64,000 nucleotides of DNA from Escherichia coli (GTDB lineage Bacteria > Pseudomonadota > Gammaproteobacteria > Enterobacterales > Enterobacteriaceae): assembly GCF_048403405.1 (NCBI RefSeq), contig NZ_CP183129.1; one strand, given 5' to 3'. Below the pieces are notes generated by a model. The model saw nothing but the letters and a program-made list of their open reading frames with translations, was not told the origin of the DNA and did not search any database. Shown in pieces: positions 1,154 to 63,365 of the stretch. Position numbers and translations under genes: made by a program. Positions within the stretch are counted from its first letter, which is position 1; every line of letters begins with the position of its first letter.

Positions 1154-2563
1154 ATGTCCGCTGAACACGTACTGACGATGCTGAACGAGCACGAAGTGAA
1201 GTTTGTTGATTTGCGCTTCACCGATACCAAAGGTAAAGAACAGCACGTCACTATCCCTGCTCATCAGGTGAATGCTGAATTCTTCGAAGAAGGCAAAATG
1301 TTTGACGGCTCCTCGATTGGCGGCTGGAAAGGCATTAACGAATCCGACATGGTGCTGATGCCAGACGCATCCACCGCAGTGATTGATCCGTTCTTCGCCG
1401 ATTCTACCCTGATTATCCGTTGCGACATCCTTGAACCTGGTACCCTGCAAGGCTATGACCGTGACCCGCGCTCCATCGCGAAGCGCGCTGAAGATTACCT
1501 GCGTTCCACTGGCATTGCCGACACCGTACTGTTCGGGCCAGAACCTGAATTCTTCCTGTTCGATGACATCCGTTTCGGATCTTCTATCTCCGGTTCCCAC
1601 GTTGCTATCGACGATATCGAAGGCGCATGGAACTCCTCCACCCAATATGAAGGTGGTAACAAAGGTCACCGTCCGGCAGTGAAAGGCGGTTACTTCCCGG
1701 TTCCGCCGGTAGACTCTGCTCAGGATATTCGTTCTGAAATGTGTCTGGTGATGGAACAGATGGGTCTGGTGGTTGAAGCCCATCACCACGAAGTAGCGAC
1801 TGCTGGTCAGAACGAAGTGGCTACCCGCTTCAATACCATGACCAAAAAAGCTGACGAAATTCAGATCTACAAATATGTTGTGCACAACGTAGCGCACCGC
1901 TTCGGTAAAACCGCGACCTTTATGCCAAAACCGATGTTCGGTGATAACGGCTCCGGTATGCACTGCCACATGTCGCTGTCTAAAAACGGCGTCAACCTGT
2001 TCGCAGGCGACAAATACGCAGGTCTGTCTGAGCAGGCGCTGTACTATATTGGCGGCGTAATCAAACACGCGAAAGCGATTAATGCCCTGGCAAACCCGAC
2101 CACCAACTCTTACAAGCGTCTGGTCCCGGGCTACGAAGCACCGGTAATGCTGGCTTACTCTGCACGCAACCGTTCTGCGTCTATCCGTATTCCGGTGGTT
2201 TCTTCTCCGAAAGCACGTCGTATCGAAGTACGTTTCCCGGATCCGGCGGCTAACCCGTACCTGTGCTTTGCTGCCCTGCTGATGGCCGGTCTTGATGGTA
2301 TCAAGAACAAGATCCATCCGGGCGAAGCCATGGACAAAAACCTGTATGACCTGCCGCCGGAAGAAGCGAAAGAGATCCCACAGGTTGCTGGTTCTCTGGA
2401 AGAAGCACTGAACGAACTGGATCTGGACCGCGAGTTCCTGAAAGCCGGTGGCGTGTTCACTGATGAAGCGATCGATGCGTACATCGCTCTGCGTCGCGAA
2501 GAAGATGACCGCGTGCGTATGACTCCGCATCCGGTAGAGTTTGAGCTGTACTACAGCGTCTAA
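1154..2563 (+). CDS. glnA: glutamine synthetase
   Basis: 469-aa ORF starting [31 protein letters not shown]; SD GGAGAG upstream; classic GlnA sequence. Confidence 0.97.
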
Positions 2564-2580
2564 TAGTTGAAGTTGTACTA

Positions 2581-2600
2581 CCCGGCGCAACAACGCCGGG
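2581..2600 (+). terminator. glnA stem-loop (CCCGGCG-caacaa-CGCCGGG), weak or partial terminator in the glnA-glnL spacer
   Basis: 7-bp GC stem right after the glnA stop; no strong T-run, consistent with known read-through into glnLG. Confidence 0.45.
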
Positions 2601-2736
2601 ATTTAGTTGCCGTGGAAACTTTCAGCCCATCTCTGCATGGGCTTTTTTCTCCGTCAATTCTCTGATGCTTCGCGCTTTTTATCCGTAAAAAGCTATAATG
2701 CACTAAAATGGTGCAACCTGTTCAGGAGACTGCTTT

Positions 2737-3786
2737 ATGGCAACAGGCACGCAGCCCGATGCTGGGCAGATCCTCAACTCGCTGATTAACAGTATTTTGT
2801 TAATCGATGACAACCTGGCGATCCATTACGCCAACCCCGCCGCGCAACAACTGCTCGCCCAAAGCTCCCGCAAATTGTTTGGTACGCCGTTACCGGAACT
2901 GTTGAGCTACTTCTCATTAAATATCGAGCTGATGCAAGAAAGTCTGGAGGCGGGGCAAGGCTTTACCGATAACGAAGTGACGCTGGTCATCGACGGGCGC
3001 TCGCATATCCTTTCTGTGACGGCCCAGCGTATGCCGGACGGCATGATCCTGCTGGAGATGGCTCCGATGGATAACCAGCGCCGCTTAAGTCAGGAACAGC
3101 TACAGCACGCCCAGCAGGTTGCTGCCCGTGATTTAGTGCGCGGCCTGGCACATGAGATTAAAAATCCGCTTGGCGGTTTACGTGGCGCGGCGCAGCTGCT
3201 CAGCAAAGCATTACCTGACCCGTCACTACTCGAATATACCAAAGTGATTATCGAACAGGCGGACCGGCTGCGAAATCTGGTCGACCGTCTGTTGGGACCG
3301 CAACTGCCCGGTACGCGCGTTACCGAAAGTATTCATAAAGTGGCTGAACGCGTGGTGACGCTGGTGTCGATGGAACTGCCGGACAACGTGCGGTTGATTC
3401 GTGATTACGACCCCAGCCTGCCGGAACTGGCGCACGACCCGGATCAAATTGAGCAAGTGCTCCTGAATATTGTGCGCAATGCGCTACAGGCGCTGGGGCC
3501 AGAGGGTGGTGAAATCATTCTGCGTACCCGCACAGCTTTCCAACTGACCTTACACGGCGAGCGTTATCGGCTGGCGGCGCGAATTGATGTGGAAGATAAC
3601 GGGCCAGGTATTCCGCCTCATTTGCAGGATACACTGTTTTACCCGATGGTCAGCGGCCGCGAAGGTGGCACCGGGCTTGGCTTATCCATCGCCCGTAATT
3701 TGATTGATCAGCATTCAGGCAAAATTGAATTTACCAGTTGGCCAGGTCATACCGAGTTCTCGGTTTACCTGCCTATCAGGAAATAA
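2737..3786 (+). CDS. glnL: nitrogen regulation sensor histidine kinase NtrB (NRII)
   Basis: 349-aa [22 protein letters not shown]...; HisKA/HATPase motifs ([13 protein letters not shown]); glnLp -10 TATAAT at 2694-2699 overlaps an NtrC-like site GCACTAAAATGGTGCA (2700-2715). Confidence 0.95.
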
Positions 3787-57339: not shown

Positions 57340-59601
57340 TTACCCCCGACGCAAATTCTGCGCCGCCTGCACCATGTTCGCCAGTGCCGCGCGAGTTTCT
57401 GGCCAGCCGCGCGTTTTCAGGCCACAGTCCGGGTTGACCCACAGACGCTCTGCCGGAATGCGTTTTGCCGCTTTCTTCAGCAAGGCTTCAATCCATTCCA
57501 CGCTCGGTACGTTTGGCGAGTGAATGTCATAGACGCCAGGACCGATTTCATTTGGATAATCAAACTCTTCAAACGACTCCAGCAACTCCATGTCGGAACG
57601 CGAGGTTTCGATGGTGATGACGTCTGCGTCCAGCGCCGCAATCGAATCCATGATGTCGTTGAACTCGCAGTAACACATGTGAGTGTGGATTTGTGTGTCA
57701 TCTTTCGCCACGGCGGCGTTGATACGGAAAGCCTCTACGCCCCACTGGAGATATGCATCCCAGTCGCTACGACGCAGCGGTAAACCTTCGCGCAGCGCCG
57801 GTTCATCAATCTGAATGATGCCAATTCCAGCGGCTTCCAGGTCCGCGACTTCATCACGCAGCGCCAGCGCAATTTGTTTGGCGATGGTTTCACGGCTGAC
57901 ATCTTCACGCGGGAACGACCAGCAGAGAATGGTCACTGGGCCAGTCAGCATCCCTTTCACCGGTTTATCAGTCAGCGATTGCGCATACTTCGCCCACTCC
58001 ACGGTAATCGGTGCCGGGCGGCTAACGTCACCAATAACAATCGGTGGCTTCACGCAGCGGGAACCGTAGCTCTGTACCCAACCGTTTTGCGTAAAGACAA
58101 AGCCATCCAGATGCTCGCCAAAGTATTCCACCATGTCATTACGCTCGGCCTCGCCATGTACCAGCACATCCAGTCCCAAACGTTCCTGCTCAACAATGGC
58201 CTGCTTGATATGTTCCGCAATGCCCGTGCGGTAGTTGTTAGCGTCGAGATTACCCTTTTTAAAATCCAGACGCAGGGTACGAATCTCCGTGGTTTGCGGG
58301 AAGGAACCAATCGTGGTGGTCGGCCACGCGGGCAGTTTAAAACGCGCACGCTGGGCTTCAGCACGCACTTCATAGACATTCGCACGCTGACTGTCCTGGG
58401 CGGTGATCGCCGCCAGACGCTTTTCTACTGCCGGATTATGAACACGAGTAGAGTGACGACGCGCCTGAATCGGAGCGCTCCACTCTGCCAGAGCAGCCGT
58501 GTCACCACTGTTCAGCGCATCGCGCAGCAGTGCCAGTTCATGACATTTTTGCAGGGCGAAGGCAAACCAGCTTTTCACTTCTGCATCAAGACGCGTTTCC
58601 ACGCTCAGGTCGATGGGGCTGTGCAGCAGTGAGCAGGAAGATGCCACCCACAAATCGCGTTTGCCGACAATGTCCTTAATTTGCGCATACTTCTCGGTAA
58701 GATCGGCGCGCCAGACGTTACGACCATTGATCAGACCCGCAGACAGTAGCCAGTCAGAAGGCAGACGCTTGTGCAGTTCAGCAACGTCATCTTTACCATG
58801 TACAAGGTCCACATGCAGCCCCTGAACAGGCAGCGCAGTAATCGTGTCGAGATTTGGCGTTACGCCTTCAAAATAGGTAGTCAGCAGCAGTTTCACCTGG
58901 CCCTGAAGCGCGTCGTAAGCGGGTTTGTATGCGTCCAGCCACGCCTGCGGTAGTTCCAGTACCAGTGCGGGTTCGTCGATCTGTACCCACTCAATGCCGC
59001 GTTTTGCCAGTTCTGCCAGTACTTGCTGATAAACCGGCAGAATGTCGTTTAGCAGGCTCAGGCGGTCAAACTGTTCACCTTTCACTTTCCCAAGCCATAG
59101 GTAGGTAACCGGCCCCAGCAGCACAGGTTTCACCTTGTGGCCCAGCGCCAGCGCCTCGTCCACTTCCTCCAGCAGCTGCGTCCAGGTCAGTTTGAACTGC
59201 TGGCCTTTAACGAACTCCGGCACCATGTAGTGATAGTTGGTGTTAAACCATTTGGTCATTTCCGCTGCCGCCGCAGGTTCGCCAGTCGGCGCACGTCCAC
59301 GACCAATACGGAACAGGGTGTCGATATCTACCGAACCATCTTTGTTCTGATGACGTGGCGGAACATTACCCAGCAGCAGACTGGTGGTCAGTACATGATC
59401 GTACCAGGCAAAATCGCCCACCGGCAGCAGGTCGATACCCGCCTGCTTTTGTTGATCCCAGTGACGGGCACGCAGTTCACGCCCTACTGCCAGCAGTTCT
59501 TCACGCGTGGAGTTCCCCGCCCAATAACTCTCTTGCGCTTTTTTCAGCTCGCGACGCAGGCCAACGCGAGGGAAACCGAGGGTGTGATTAAGAATTGTCA
59601 T
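57340..59601 (-). CDS. metE: cobalamin-independent methionine synthase
   Basis: 753 aa [48 protein letters not shown]... Confidence 0.97.
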
Positions 59602-59631
59602 TATATGCCCCTTATGGAATTTTTAGTATTT

Positions 59632-59655
59632 AGCCGTCCAGATGTTTACACATCC
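59632..59655. promoter_or_regulatory. tandem MetJ boxes in the metE-metR divergent control region
   Basis: AGCCGTCC-AGATGTTT-ACACATCC: three contiguous 8-mers resembling the AGACGTCT met-box; a TGAA-N5-TTCA MetR-like motif at 59707-59719 abuts the metR ATG. Confidence 0.45.
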
Positions 59656-59718
59656 ATAATTGGCGGTTACTGTATATTCCTCAAGCGCAAATTATTCATG
59701 CCGAAGTGAAGGACTTTC

Positions 59719-60672
59719 ATGATCGAAGTAAAACACCTGAAAACGCTACAAGCGTTGCGGAACTGCGGCTCGCTCGCAGCCGCTGCGGCGACGTTGCATC
59801 AGACGCAATCCGCCCTATCTCACCAGTTTAGCGATCTGGAACAACGCCTTGGCTTCCGGCTATTTGTGCGTAAGAGCCAGCCGCTTCGCTTTACACCGCA
59901 GGGAGAAATCCTGTTGCAACTGGCAAACCAGGTGCTGCCACAAATTAGCCAGGCACTGCAAGCCTGCAATGAACCGCAGCAGACGCGTCTGCGCATCGCC
60001 ATTGAGTGCCATAGCTGTATACAGTGGCTGACGCCCGCGTTAGAAAATTTCCATAAGAACTGGCCGCAGGTCGAGATGGACTTTAAATCGGGCGTGACGT
60101 TTGACCCGCAGCCTGCGTTGCAACAGGGCGAGCTGGATCTGGTGATGACGTCAGATATTCTGCCGCGCAGTGGCCTGCATTATTCGCCGATGTTCGACTA
60201 TGAAGTACGCCTGGTGTTAGCACCTGACCATCCATTGGCGGCAAAAACGCGTATTACACCGGAAGATCTCGCCAGCGAGACGCTGTTGATTTATCCGGTG
60301 CAGCGTAGCCGACTGGATGTCTGGCGGCATTTTCTTCAGCCGGCAGGCGTCAGCCCGTCACTGAAAAGCGTCGATAACACCTTATTGTTGATTCAGATGG
60401 TTGCCGCGCGGATGGGTATTGCCGCCCTGCCGCATTGGGTAGTAGAGAGTTTTGAGCGCCAGGGTCTGGTGGTGACCAAAACCCTGGGCGAAGGCTTGTG
60501 GAGCCGACTGTACGCCGCCGTGCGCGATGGCGAGCAGCGTCAGCCGATTACTGAAGCGTTTATTCGCTCAGCGCGCAATCACGCCTGCGATCATCTGCCG
60601 TTTGTGAAGAGCGCGGAGCGACCCACTTACGATGCACCCACAGTGAGGCCAGGATCACCAGCGCGCCTGTAA
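59719..60672 (+). CDS. metR: LysR-family activator MetR
   Basis: 317 aa [63 protein letters not shown]... Confidence 0.95.
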
Positions 60673-61459
60673 TGAACGTTGGCCAGTGCGGCTGTTGGTG
60701 CCAGATAGCCAGGTTTACCAGCAGCCCTGCCGGAACGTGCATATTATTCATAATACCCAGCGTTCCGGCGTCTACTTGGGTTGCGCCGTAGTTCCACATA
60801 AAGTAGCCAATCCCGGAAGCCACCACGCCAAGAAACACCAGAATGCCCCATTGCAACGTGGTTTGCGGCATTTTCTGCGCATTTCCCAGCAAGAACCATG
60901 CAATCACCGCCACCAGGAACGCGCCAAGATAGAACCACGCAAAGGCGTTATGCTGCGGCATCGGGCGAGTTTCCATCAGGCGTTTGTAACCCACCATGCC
61001 GATGGCAAATGTGATATTGGAGAGTTGCACCAGCAGCAAGCCAGTCCAGAAATGGTCGGTGACCTGATCATAGCGAATAATCCCGGCACCAATCACCGCC
61101 AGCAAGGCGCTAAAAGCATAGCCCCAGCGCAGACGGCGCTTACTCATGATGTCATAAATCAGCGTGATGTAGAGCGGCGTCAGTACGGTGAACAGCAGCA
61201 GTTCGGAGACCGTCAGGTAGAGATAGGCGCGGAAACTCAGCATATACATCACGCCGAGCTGCATCGCGCCCACCAGCATATACAGGCCGACCGTTTTCAG
61301 GCTATTGCCACGGGTACGCAGAAACGGCAGAAAAACGAGTGCCGCCAGGCCAACGCGCACCAGCACCGCAAAATAGCTATCGACGTGCCCCGCAAGGTAC
61401 TCGCCATAAAAGCTAAAGGAGAAGGCCCACAGAATCGTGGTGATGATAAGTAGCGCCAC
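60560..61459 (-). CDS. yigM: DMT/EamA-family transporter YigM (biotin transporter)
   Basis: 299 aa [43 protein letters not shown]...; 3' end overlaps the metR 3' end convergently by ~113 nt. Confidence 0.88.
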
Positions 61460-61534
61460 AATGGAAAACTCTTTGATTAACGAGTATCCATTGTAGCGAA
61501 GTATCAGGTTGACAACTGACCAAATAAAGAACGA

Positions 61535-62335
61535 TTACGATAAATAGAGCTTACGCAGATAATGCGGCACTGCGTCTTCGGCGTTAGTACCAATCACTTC
61601 CAGCTCTGGATGCAGATCTTTCAGCCGTTGGTGCGCACTGCCCATAATGCAGCCTTTCCCCGCCATCGACAGCATTTCGGCGTCGTTCATCCCGTCACCA
61701 AACGCAATACAATCCTTCAGGCTGTAGCCCAGTTTCTTCGCCACTGCTTCCAACGCATGGCCTTTCGACACGCCGCCCGCCATCACTTCCAGACAGGTTA
61801 AGGTAGAGAAACTAACGTTGACGCGATCGCCCCAGCGAGCGTTGATCGCCTGCTCCAGCGGCAGCAGTTGTTCATGGGAATCGCAGGTGAAGAACACTTT
61901 GCTGACGCCTTCCGGCTCCAGTAATCCCGGCTCATACAGCGCATATTTGAACACCACTTCTTTAAAAAAGCGCATCTCTTCCGGGCGATGGCGATTCATA
62001 AACCATTCGTCGTCGCGATAAACGTTAGTAATGATGTCCGGATTGTCGTTGACTACGCCAAACAGATCGCTGGCAATGTCGCGATCCAGGTTATGAGCAA
62101 AAATCAGATTGCCATCCAGATCGTGAACGCGCGCGCCATTGGAGGTAATCATGTAAGACTTAATCTCCAGATTATCGCGAATTTGCCCCACATCAACGTG
62201 GTGACGACCGGTCGCAAACACAAAGTTGATGCCGCGCGCGGTGAGCAGCTTCAGAGTTTCTTTGGCGTAAGGGGATAACGTATGGTCGGGAGAAAGTAAC
62301 GTGCCATCTAAATCAGACGCAACAACCTGGTACAT
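61535..62335 (-). CDS. yigL: HAD-family (Cof-type) sugar phosphatase YigL
   Basis: 266 aa from MYQVVASDLDGTLLSPDHTLSPYAKETLKLL (HAD motif I DLDGTL); the ORF-track start at 62461 is an upstream extension. Confidence 0.88.
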   Translation of the reverse strand: MYQVVASDLDGTLLSPDHTLSPYAKETLKLLTARGINFVFATGRHHVDVGQIRDNLEIKSYMITSNGARVHDLDGNLIFAHNLDRDIASDLFGVVNDNPDIITNVYRDDEWFMNRHRPEEMRFFKEVVFKYALYEPGLLEPEGVSKVFFTCDSHEQLLPLEQAINARWGDRVNVSFSTLTCLEVMAGGVSKGHALEAVAKKLGYSLKDCIAFGDGMNDAEMLSMAGKGCIMGSAHQRLKDLHPELEVIGTNAEDAVPHYLRKLYLS

Positions 62336-62342
62336 AAGAAAT

Positions 62343-63365
62343 TTAAACCTCTGTAGAGCGGTTTCCGCTGGGTGAGTTATGCCTGTTGAAAAAATCAACG
62401 ATGGCGTGGAGCGCGACTGAGCGCATTGCGTCCTTTTCAAAAAGGATCTCATGGTACGCACCTTTAATTACCAACGGCCGTCCACCTTCGACAGGATGGC
62501 CCGCGGCGGTGCGGAGTTCACAAAAACGGTCGTGCATGCGGTTATCCACCACGCGTTCCTCTTCAGCTTGTAAGAGAAGCGTTGGCGTGGCGTCATCACC
62601 CGCACCGGCTAACACCTGTTCGCCAGCCAGAATACTTTCGCGTACCCAATGGTAGGTCGGCCCACCGACGCGAATCGTTGGGTCATCAGCATAGAAGCGT
62701 AAGTTACGTCGATATCGCTGTCTGCTGTGGGTCAGTACGTTGATAGCAAACGGCAACGCGCGCCAGCGCCCGGTGCCTATTGCATAGCCATCGCGGAAAC
62801 GTGGATGCGCTTCGGCCCAGTTGAGGATCTGCCGTGCCATAAATGACGGCATACGAATCACGATCCCAAACATTGGCGCAGTTAGCGCAATGGCGTCACA
62901 TACACCTGGATGGCGTTGCAGAAATAATGTGGAGATCGCACCGCCCATCGAGTGCGCCAGTATATAGCGTTTACGCCACGGACCGGGCTGAACCTCCTGT
63001 TGCCAGAATGCCGCCAGATCATCAACATAATCATTAAAGCGATTAACATGCCCGAGATGCGGATCGGCTAACAGGCGACCGGAACGTCCCTGCCCGCGAT
63101 GGTCGATGATTAAGACATCAAACCCTAAATGGAACAGGTCGTAAGCCAGTTCCGCATATTTTACGTAGCTCTCAATACGCCCCGGGCAGATGACTACCAC
63201 CCGGTCATGGTGCTGCGCGCGAAAACGGACAAAGCGCACCGGAATGTCATCCACACCAGTAAATTCTGCTTCATCACGCTGACGCCAGAAATCAGTCAGC
63301 GGTCCCATGGTAAAAGCAGCAAACGCGTTTTCTCTTGTTTCCCAGTCTTTTTGCTGCTGAAACAT
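62343..63365 (-). CDS. pldB: lysophospholipase L2
   Basis: 340 aa MFQQQKDWETRENAFAAFTMGPLTDFWRQRDEAEF...; lipase motif AHSMGG. Confidence 0.93.
   Translation of the reverse strand: MFQQQKDWETRENAFAAFTMGPLTDFWRQRDEAEFTGVDDIPVRFVRFRAQHHDRVVVICPGRIESYVKYAELAYDLFHLGFDVLIIDHRGQGRSGRLLADPHLGHVNRFNDYVDDLAAFWQQEVQPGPWRKRYILAHSMGGAISTLFLQRHPGVCDAIALTAPMFGIVIRMPSFMARQILNWAEAHPRFRDGYAIGTGRWRALPFAINVLTHSRQRYRRNLRFYADDPTIRVGGPTYHWVRESILAGEQVLAGAGDDATPTLLLQAEEERVVDNRMHDRFCELRTAAGHPVEGGRPLVIKGAYHEILFEKDAMRSVALHAIVDFFNRHNSPSGNRSTEV

Follow-up and report, generated by a model that had tools for sequence, protein, structure and literature searches.

Bidirectional intrinsic terminators, where convergent genes share them, end two converging transcripts in a small space. 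Many long overlaps annotated in prokaryotic genomes are mis-annotations (Pallejà, Harrington and Bork 2008, PMC2478687, which cites Rogozin et al. 2002). In that survey, 54 of the 178 convergent overlaps that exceed 60 bp were judged potentially real, the only long-overlap class so judged; the candidates join well-characterised genes of conserved length and are for the most part conserved only among very close species. The nearest demonstrated regulatory analogue of such a pair is mscL-arfA (PMC10070815), convergent neighbours restricted to Enterobacterales with complementary 3' ends, for which antisense control and RNase III sites have been shown experimentally and in which the spacing varies (overlapping, proximal or distal).

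The pair considered here, metR and yigM (now bioP), is itself already annotated and published. Cote et al. (2016, mBio; PMC5120140) described the metR/yigM overlap in E. coli K-12 and planned their deletions with it in mind; it is the identical feature, involving the same 113 bp of the same two genes. The homology arm of their yigM deletion corresponds to positions 60644-60693 of the window (the whole 64,000-nt stretch of Escherichia coli DNA that was analysed), and the overlap was thus deliberately left in place and metR spared. Their metR deletion leaves just the final six codons of metR in place, and BioP is lost from about residue 270 on; the mutant is synthetic-lethal with bioA, shows sensitivity to a BioA inhibitor and behaves in biotin uptake like a yigM deletion, effects that the authors blame on concomitant disruption of yigM. 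Physical truncation of bioP explains the effect of the metR deletion on biotin uptake. The gene yigM was renamed bioP, with Ringlstetter 2010 and Finkenwirth 2013 acknowledged as earlier work in a correction. What we add, and what is absent from the literature found, is an analysis of which reading frame evolves where within the overlap, together with an explanation of its length by stop codons pinned inside the partner gene.

The metR-bioP overlap and its conservation

The gene block in the window runs metE (-), metR (+), then bioP/yigM, yigL and pldB (all -), and the coding sequences of metR and bioP converge and overlap at their 3' ends (Table 1). From the coordinates, metR codon positions 1, 2 and 3 face bioP positions 1, 3 and 2, respectively. 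MetR, the LysR-type activator of metE/metH, matches the NCBIfam equivalog NF011950 over residues 1-317 (E 1e-223) and carries the Pfam domains HTH_1 (residues 5-63) and LysR_substrate (86-288). BioP is a 10-TM DMT/EamA biotin transporter, with a match to TIGR00950 over residues 11-273 and to Pfam EamA up to residue 275; RefSeq names the yigM product 'bioP: biotin transporter', and the role in biotin transport comes from genetics (PMC5120140, PMC4049904). Profile matches and published genetics together identify both overlapping frames as real genes of known families. PGAP/RefSeq annotates CDSs of these lengths (954 and 900 bp), with 113 bp in common, in a 100%-identical E. coli, in a K-12-like strain and in MG1655, where bioP occupies 4011076-4011975 and metR 4011863-4012816 (b3827/b3828). 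A further open frame of 255 aa lies antisense to bioP at 60686-61453 (+), directly opposite the bioP codons; it looks like the usual long antisense ORF that results from the rarity of TTA, CTA and TCA codons.

Table 1. Coordinates in the window of the metR and bioP genes, their overlap and the sites discussed in the text.
Feature	Position	Strand	Details
metR CDS	59719..60672	+	317 aa, ATG start, 954 bp; ORF and RefSeq annotation
metR stop and in-frame back-up stop	TAA 60670-60672, then TGA 60673-60675	+	Raw sequence
bioP (yigM) CDS	60560..61459	-	299 aa, GTG start, 900 bp; ORF and RefSeq
bioP stop	TAA, reverse complement TTA at 60560-60562	-	Raw sequence
Convergent metR/bioP CDS overlap	60560..60672	both strands	113 bp
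Zone A	60560..60607		MetR residues 281-297 opposite BioP tail 285-299 and stop
Doubly constrained core	60608..60624		MetR S298-A-E-R-P302 opposite BioP V280-A-P-R-S284
Zone B	60625..60672		MetR tail 303-317 and stop opposite BioP TM10 residues 263-278
BioP stop site	60559..60564		TAA embedded in MetR F281-I282 (TTT ATT)
MetR stop and back-up stop site	60668..60676		Embedded in BioP F262-I263-T264
Rho-dependent termination region, approximate	60431..61231	- (bioP sense strand)	Best coordinate ~60831

The initial annotation had named both genes, placed them on opposite strands, read both stops and given the overlap as 113 bp, all of which agrees with the ORF list, the sequence and RefSeq. Given the general record of long overlaps, it might still be suspected that one of the two genes ends earlier and that no coding overlap exists. 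A stop position, unlike a start, is read directly from the sequence and cannot be mis-called; among overlaps, only convergent ones were found to be potentially real (Pallejà et al., PMC2478687); and a metR deletion that removes the overlap region abolishes BioP function (PMC5120140). We looked for an earlier stop in either gene, which would remove the overlap, and found both frames open to the stops in Table 1 in more than 80 species. An annotation artefact was rejected on this evidence, its probability being close to nil.

Of 5426 complete E. coli genomes, 5423 carry the metR-bioP locus. A scan with MetR that took one genome per species gave 80 loci, or 82 with two extra E. coli, from Escherichia, Salmonella, Citrobacter, Enterobacter, Kluyvera, Kosakonia, Leclercia, Lelliottia, Trabulsiella, Pluralibacter and other genera. 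Alignment of these orthologues, the check that had been proposed for the two stops, confirms both of them, and the overlap is exactly 113 bp in 78 of the 82 Enterobacteriaceae-type loci. The four exceptions measure 98 bp (one locus, with the MetR stop at codon 313), 116 bp (two loci) and 68 bp (one locus, with an earlier stop in bioP). The overlap is found elsewhere too, at 113 bp in Yersinia, 95 bp in Rahnella, 98 bp in Dickeya and 95 bp in Pectobacterium; in these four genera the convergent pair adjoins metE and the genes past bioP differ. The BioP stop falls at the same MetR codon in all four, and across the orthologue loci it is the MetR end that varies (311, 312, 317 or 318 aa, with 311-312 aa in three other genera) while the BioP stop stays fixed. 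The overlap thus occurs in at least three families of Enterobacterales and is ancient. Gene lengths and stops agree with those of the orthologues, as in the potentially real overlaps of Pallejà et al. (PMC2478687), whose candidates are mostly conserved only among very close species whereas metR-bioP spans at least three families.

Distant MetR proteins (42-52% identity) are 296-312 aa long and their alignment fades past E. coli residue ~289-304, and the Neisseria MetR effector-domain structure 4AB5 aligns up to residue 296. BioP is shortened to 284-285 aa in two clusters, one with 42 sequences and one, named from Salmonella Gaminara, with 66, as well as in the locus with the 68-bp overlap. The best 120 matches in a protein search for BioP relatives were all at least 82% identical, and a search by sequence found no solved BioP structure. 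The GTG start of bioP is kept in all six species checked, which include Salmonella, Yersinia, Rahnella, Dickeya and Pectobacterium. MetR database entries of 289-293 aa were considered as natural C-terminal truncations and rejected, as they carry internal deletions and keep the full tail.

Several genomes depart from the common pattern in other ways. The metR-bioP allele of the window is uncommon, only nine of 5425 complete E. coli genomes being at least 99% identical over the 2 kb at 59600-61600; K-12-like strains and EcN are ~97.4-97.5% identical over these 2 kb, and the overlap in the window is thus a rarer allele than that of K-12. The MetR of the window and the one in an 'Escherichia whittamii' genome are 100% identical, and the window may come from a divergent E. 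coli lineage. In E. coli Z135-6 (NZ_CP159632.1, 2010948-2016027; locus positions 2037-3214) metR lacks its 3' part and bioP its 3' three-quarters, with ~1.2 kb that carry a 211-aa hypothetical ORF in their place; the whole overlap is gone and both genes are annotated as pseudogenes, the replacement being either natural or engineered. An endosymbiont-like Enterobacterales relative (a Logan contig from SRR29675724, 25% GC) keeps metE-metR and has lost bioP; its MetR has 311 aa, and a 30-nt gap separates metR from a convergent yigL-like hydrolase gene. Finally, an assembly titled 'Chryseobacterium sp. 18061' (CACSKA010000013.1) holds a typical Enterobacteriaceae metE-metR-bioP locus with a MetR 92% identical to that of E. 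coli, and is probably mislabelled or contaminated.

Frame usage and pinned stops within the overlap

Column entropies were computed by codon position from 76-80 gaplessly aligned species. Substitutions follow the MetR frame in zone A, where the mean entropy of metR third positions is 0.66 and that of bioP third positions 0.017. Over 16-codon windows, bioP position-3 entropy is 0.06-0.11 in zone A compared with a minimum of 0.75 elsewhere in bioP, and metR third-position diversity there lies only at about the 4th-5th percentile of metR windows. The pattern switches in zone B, where substitutions follow the BioP frame: bioP position 3 has an entropy of ~1.0, which is normal for bioP, and metR position 3 falls to 0.17-0.25, below every other metR window. 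Between the two zones, the 17-bp core has entropies of 0.0, 0.20 and 0.21 in the three position classes, with the codons GCG, CGA and CCC of MetR and GTC and CCG of BioP invariant in 76 species. At the protein level, a MetR segment of 17 residues followed by (R/K)SAERP is kept where the BioP tail varies, and BioP 'WPSFIxGxxVIxASLWVHRxWVAPRS' is kept where the MetR tail varies.

This division coincides with the modelled structures. AlphaFold2 models MetR confidently to about residue 301, with a last helix at 276-292 and a strand at 296-298, and gives pLDDT below 50 for residues 302-316; BioP is modelled confidently to about residue 282, with the TM10 helix at 259-279 and pLDDT below 50 for 283-299. 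The confidently modelled parts of the two proteins abut in the DNA at ~60614-60621, and each tail is antisense to the partner's last structured element, the MetR tail to TM10 of BioP and the BioP tail to the last helix and strand of MetR. The overlap consists mostly of two predicted-disordered tails of ~16 residues each, low pLDDT being no proof of disorder.

The positions of both stop codons can be read from the partner protein. In the phase of this overlap, TTY next to an A-initial codon yields the stop TRA when the other strand is read. On the MetR side, F281 is TTT and I282 is ATT in 76 of 76 species, and F281 does not vary even among MetR relatives with 42-60% identity. On the BioP side, codon 263 (Ile or Leu) has T or C as its third base and precedes an A-initial codon in 78 of 79 species. 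The complements of BioP F262-I263-T/I264 form the MetR stop and its back-up, and MetR codons 318 and 319 are stops in 74 and 62 of 76 species, respectively. With both stops locked within codons that are constrained in the partner gene, the overlap has a frozen length of 113 bp. The length of the tails themselves is also unremarkable. The MetR frame antisense to bioP has 15 stops in 262 codons (about 1 per 17) and the BioP frame antisense to metR has seven in 280 (1 per 40), and at such densities run-ons of ~15 codons past the last constrained residue are to be expected.

It could instead be proposed that the arrangement is one of true dual coding, in which both C-terminal tails are functional peptides, for example a cytoplasmic tail of BioP containing conserved Arg and Glu, or a MetR tail rich in Pro, and the 113 bp are under selection on both proteins. 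The doubly invariant core fits such selection, and several wobble positions in the tails are frozen without a reason visible in their own protein. The BioP codon H276 is CAT in 76 of 76 species, which fixes MetR D305; BioP codon 270 is NNG in 75 of 76, which fixes MetR P311; and the frozen wobble positions of MetR F281 and I282 fix BioP E299 and a TAA rather than TGA stop. BioP R291, R293 and A296 and MetR S313 are fixed by frozen wobble as well. Synonymous codons that would create a stop in the partner are also avoided at two BioP codons. BioP V268 is GTG in 74 of 76 species, GTT or GTC being codons that would end MetR at 312, and such stop-creating synonymous codons occur there in three of 81. 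BioP I269 is the rare ATA in 12 of the 14 cases in which an A-initial codon (Met or Thr) comes next, including all 12 species with Met at residue 270, and a premature MetR stop is thereby avoided.

Against this, reduced synonymous variation in both frames is confined to the core and does not extend over the whole overlap; outside the core, third-position variation stays normal or nearly so in one frame and the other frame changes at second positions, and most tail residues change there in step with the partner's synonymous substitutions. The MetR end differs among families (311-318 aa), the shortened BioP persists in sizeable clusters, and both tails have pLDDT below 50. The background of comparably frozen sites is five of 218 in metR and three of 169 in bioP, and the excess in the tails is marginal, with a simple binomial p of ~0.03-0.2 from counts that ignore phylogenetic kinship. 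The frozen wobble sites hint at a weak residual constraint, and the tails are weakly constrained at best. We regard selection on both proteins across the full 113 bp as quite improbable.

Transcription and termination across the overlap

A search for terminator-like hairpins on both strands of 59400-62000 gave four weak hits, compared with 2.6 +/- 1.8 in shuffled sequence; these are hairpins of 5-7 pairs, and none lies at the 3' end of metR or bioP. No GC-rich hairpin with flanking U/A tracts was found in or near 60560-60672, and metR-bioP is in this respect unlike pairs that share a bidirectional terminator. Promoter-like sites in or near the overlap did not exceed chance, and an Rfam scan of 59000-62500 at E<=1 returned no match. 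The initial annotation had held that the overlap leaves no room for terminators. This holds for an intergenic intrinsic terminator, as no hairpin beyond chance was found on either strand; as a general statement it does not, since termination needs no intergenic space.

The available data point to Rho. Using DirectRNA-seq with and without bicyclomycin, Adams et al. (2021, eLife; supplementary file 2) list a Rho region 'internal, yigM' at MG1655 4011704 (+), with a Rho score of 5.07 (p 1.3e-12). Reads there fall from 98 upstream to 21 downstream without bicyclomycin and go from 300 to 326 with the drug. Mapped through the MG1655 annotation, this position gives the best coordinate in Table 1, to be read at the resolution of the data (800-nt windows, ~+/-400-800 nt, one condition, LB). 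Rho thus halts transcription of the bioP strand somewhere around the 3' third of bioP or the start of antisense metR. Rho-dependent termination inside the partner gene is likely on at least one strand, and the GTG start of bioP together with a Rho region inside its ORF suggests weak translation and Rho-sensitive expression of the biotin transporter.

The gene metR is MetJ-controlled and, given this repression, is probably expressed poorly in rich medium. Biotin synthesis, for its part, consumes SAM (BioC, BioA, BioB), and this use of SAM is a conceivable physiological link to metR. On such grounds the overlap might be regulatory, with collision of RNA polymerases or duplexes cleaved by RNase III coupling methionine/SAM status to biotin uptake, and with this coupling preserving the arrangement. 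With neither an intergenic space nor an intrinsic terminator, full-length mRNAs of the two genes would be complementary over at least 113 nt; the metR-bioP adjacency is kept across the order although the genes past bioP differ; and mscL-arfA offers an E. coli precedent for antisense control through a 3' overlap (PMC10070815). That pair differs from metR-bioP, in which the overlap is of CDS on CDS, has a fixed length and has no known cross-regulation.

The initial annotation had likewise raised transcriptional interference and antisense effects. These are possible, and nothing in support of them was found in the tables of Term-seq, SMRT-Cappable-seq and p19 dsRNA capture or in Rfam. The Rho table of Adams et al. 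(2021), which covers LB only, has no entry for metR and none for 'antisense yigM', and their Term-seq tables list no 3' end for metR/yigM. The SMRT-Cappable-seq supplements hold no metR/yigM/yigL entry and the p19 dsRNA-capture supplements no metR/yigM entry, absence from such tables being no proof of absence. A literature search combining yigM with antisense returned nothing, and we found no published report of metR or bioP expression altering the other in cis. Rho already curtails bioP-strand transcription near the 3' part of the gene, and the endosymbiont-like relative that lacks bioP keeps a 311-aa MetR with the same tail region. The pinned stops fully account for the conserved overlap length: as either stop lies within codons on which the partner gene is constrained, the strict conservation of the overlap has a simpler explanation than regulation. 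A regulatory overlap therefore appears unlikely.

A more specific form of coupling, in which the fixed overlap is also a cis link between methionine/SAM supply and biotin uptake, we consider very improbable. If it were true, derepressed transcription of metR at low methionine, when MetJ is off, would change bioP mRNA by way of collision or of duplexes sensitive to RNase III, and this modulation would be timed to the moment at which SAM-dependent biotin synthesis is compromised. Regulatory coupling of methionine and biotin would be of moderate interest if shown; nothing found here points there.

Origin of the overlap and its consequences

Rather than regulation or dual coding, we favour, with a probability of about 0.8, a genuine and ancient 'mutual 3' run-on', a largely passive overlap of two tails under weak constraint. 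The folded and strongly selected parts of MetR and BioP would end almost together in the DNA, at ~60608-60624. Past that point each frame would simply run on along the antisense of the partner's final structured element up to the first stop, MetR across TM10 of BioP and BioP across the helix and strand that close the effector domain of MetR. Both stops are supplied by a conserved Phe-Ile dipeptide of the partner (TTY-A.. read as TRA) and, once reached, would be held by purifying selection on the partner protein, whereas the tails would change mainly as a by-product of the partner's synonymous substitutions. The length of the overlap would in this way be frozen without any selection for the overlap itself. 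We infer that the tails are translated and nearly dispensable, and that Rho-dependent or unstructured termination within the partner gene ends the transcripts of both, without a dedicated regulatory role. The overlap first noticed in the sequence is thus genuine, and the interpretation first placed on it is partly supported.

These findings bear on how mutants of either gene are built and read. A standard deletion of either gene damages the other, and a metR deletion is in effect a biotin-transport mutant (PMC5120140); conversely, the Keio yigM deletion should truncate MetR after about residue 287. The reported growth of yigM mutants in mineral or M9 medium (PMC4049904, PMC10038027) was not counted as evidence on methionine auxotrophy. 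Phenotypes of metR or yigM in genome-wide screens need care, as does the design of the mutants. More broadly, metR and bioP provide an evolutionary example of a long convergent overlap that would have lasted very long although the overlap as such was not selected for.
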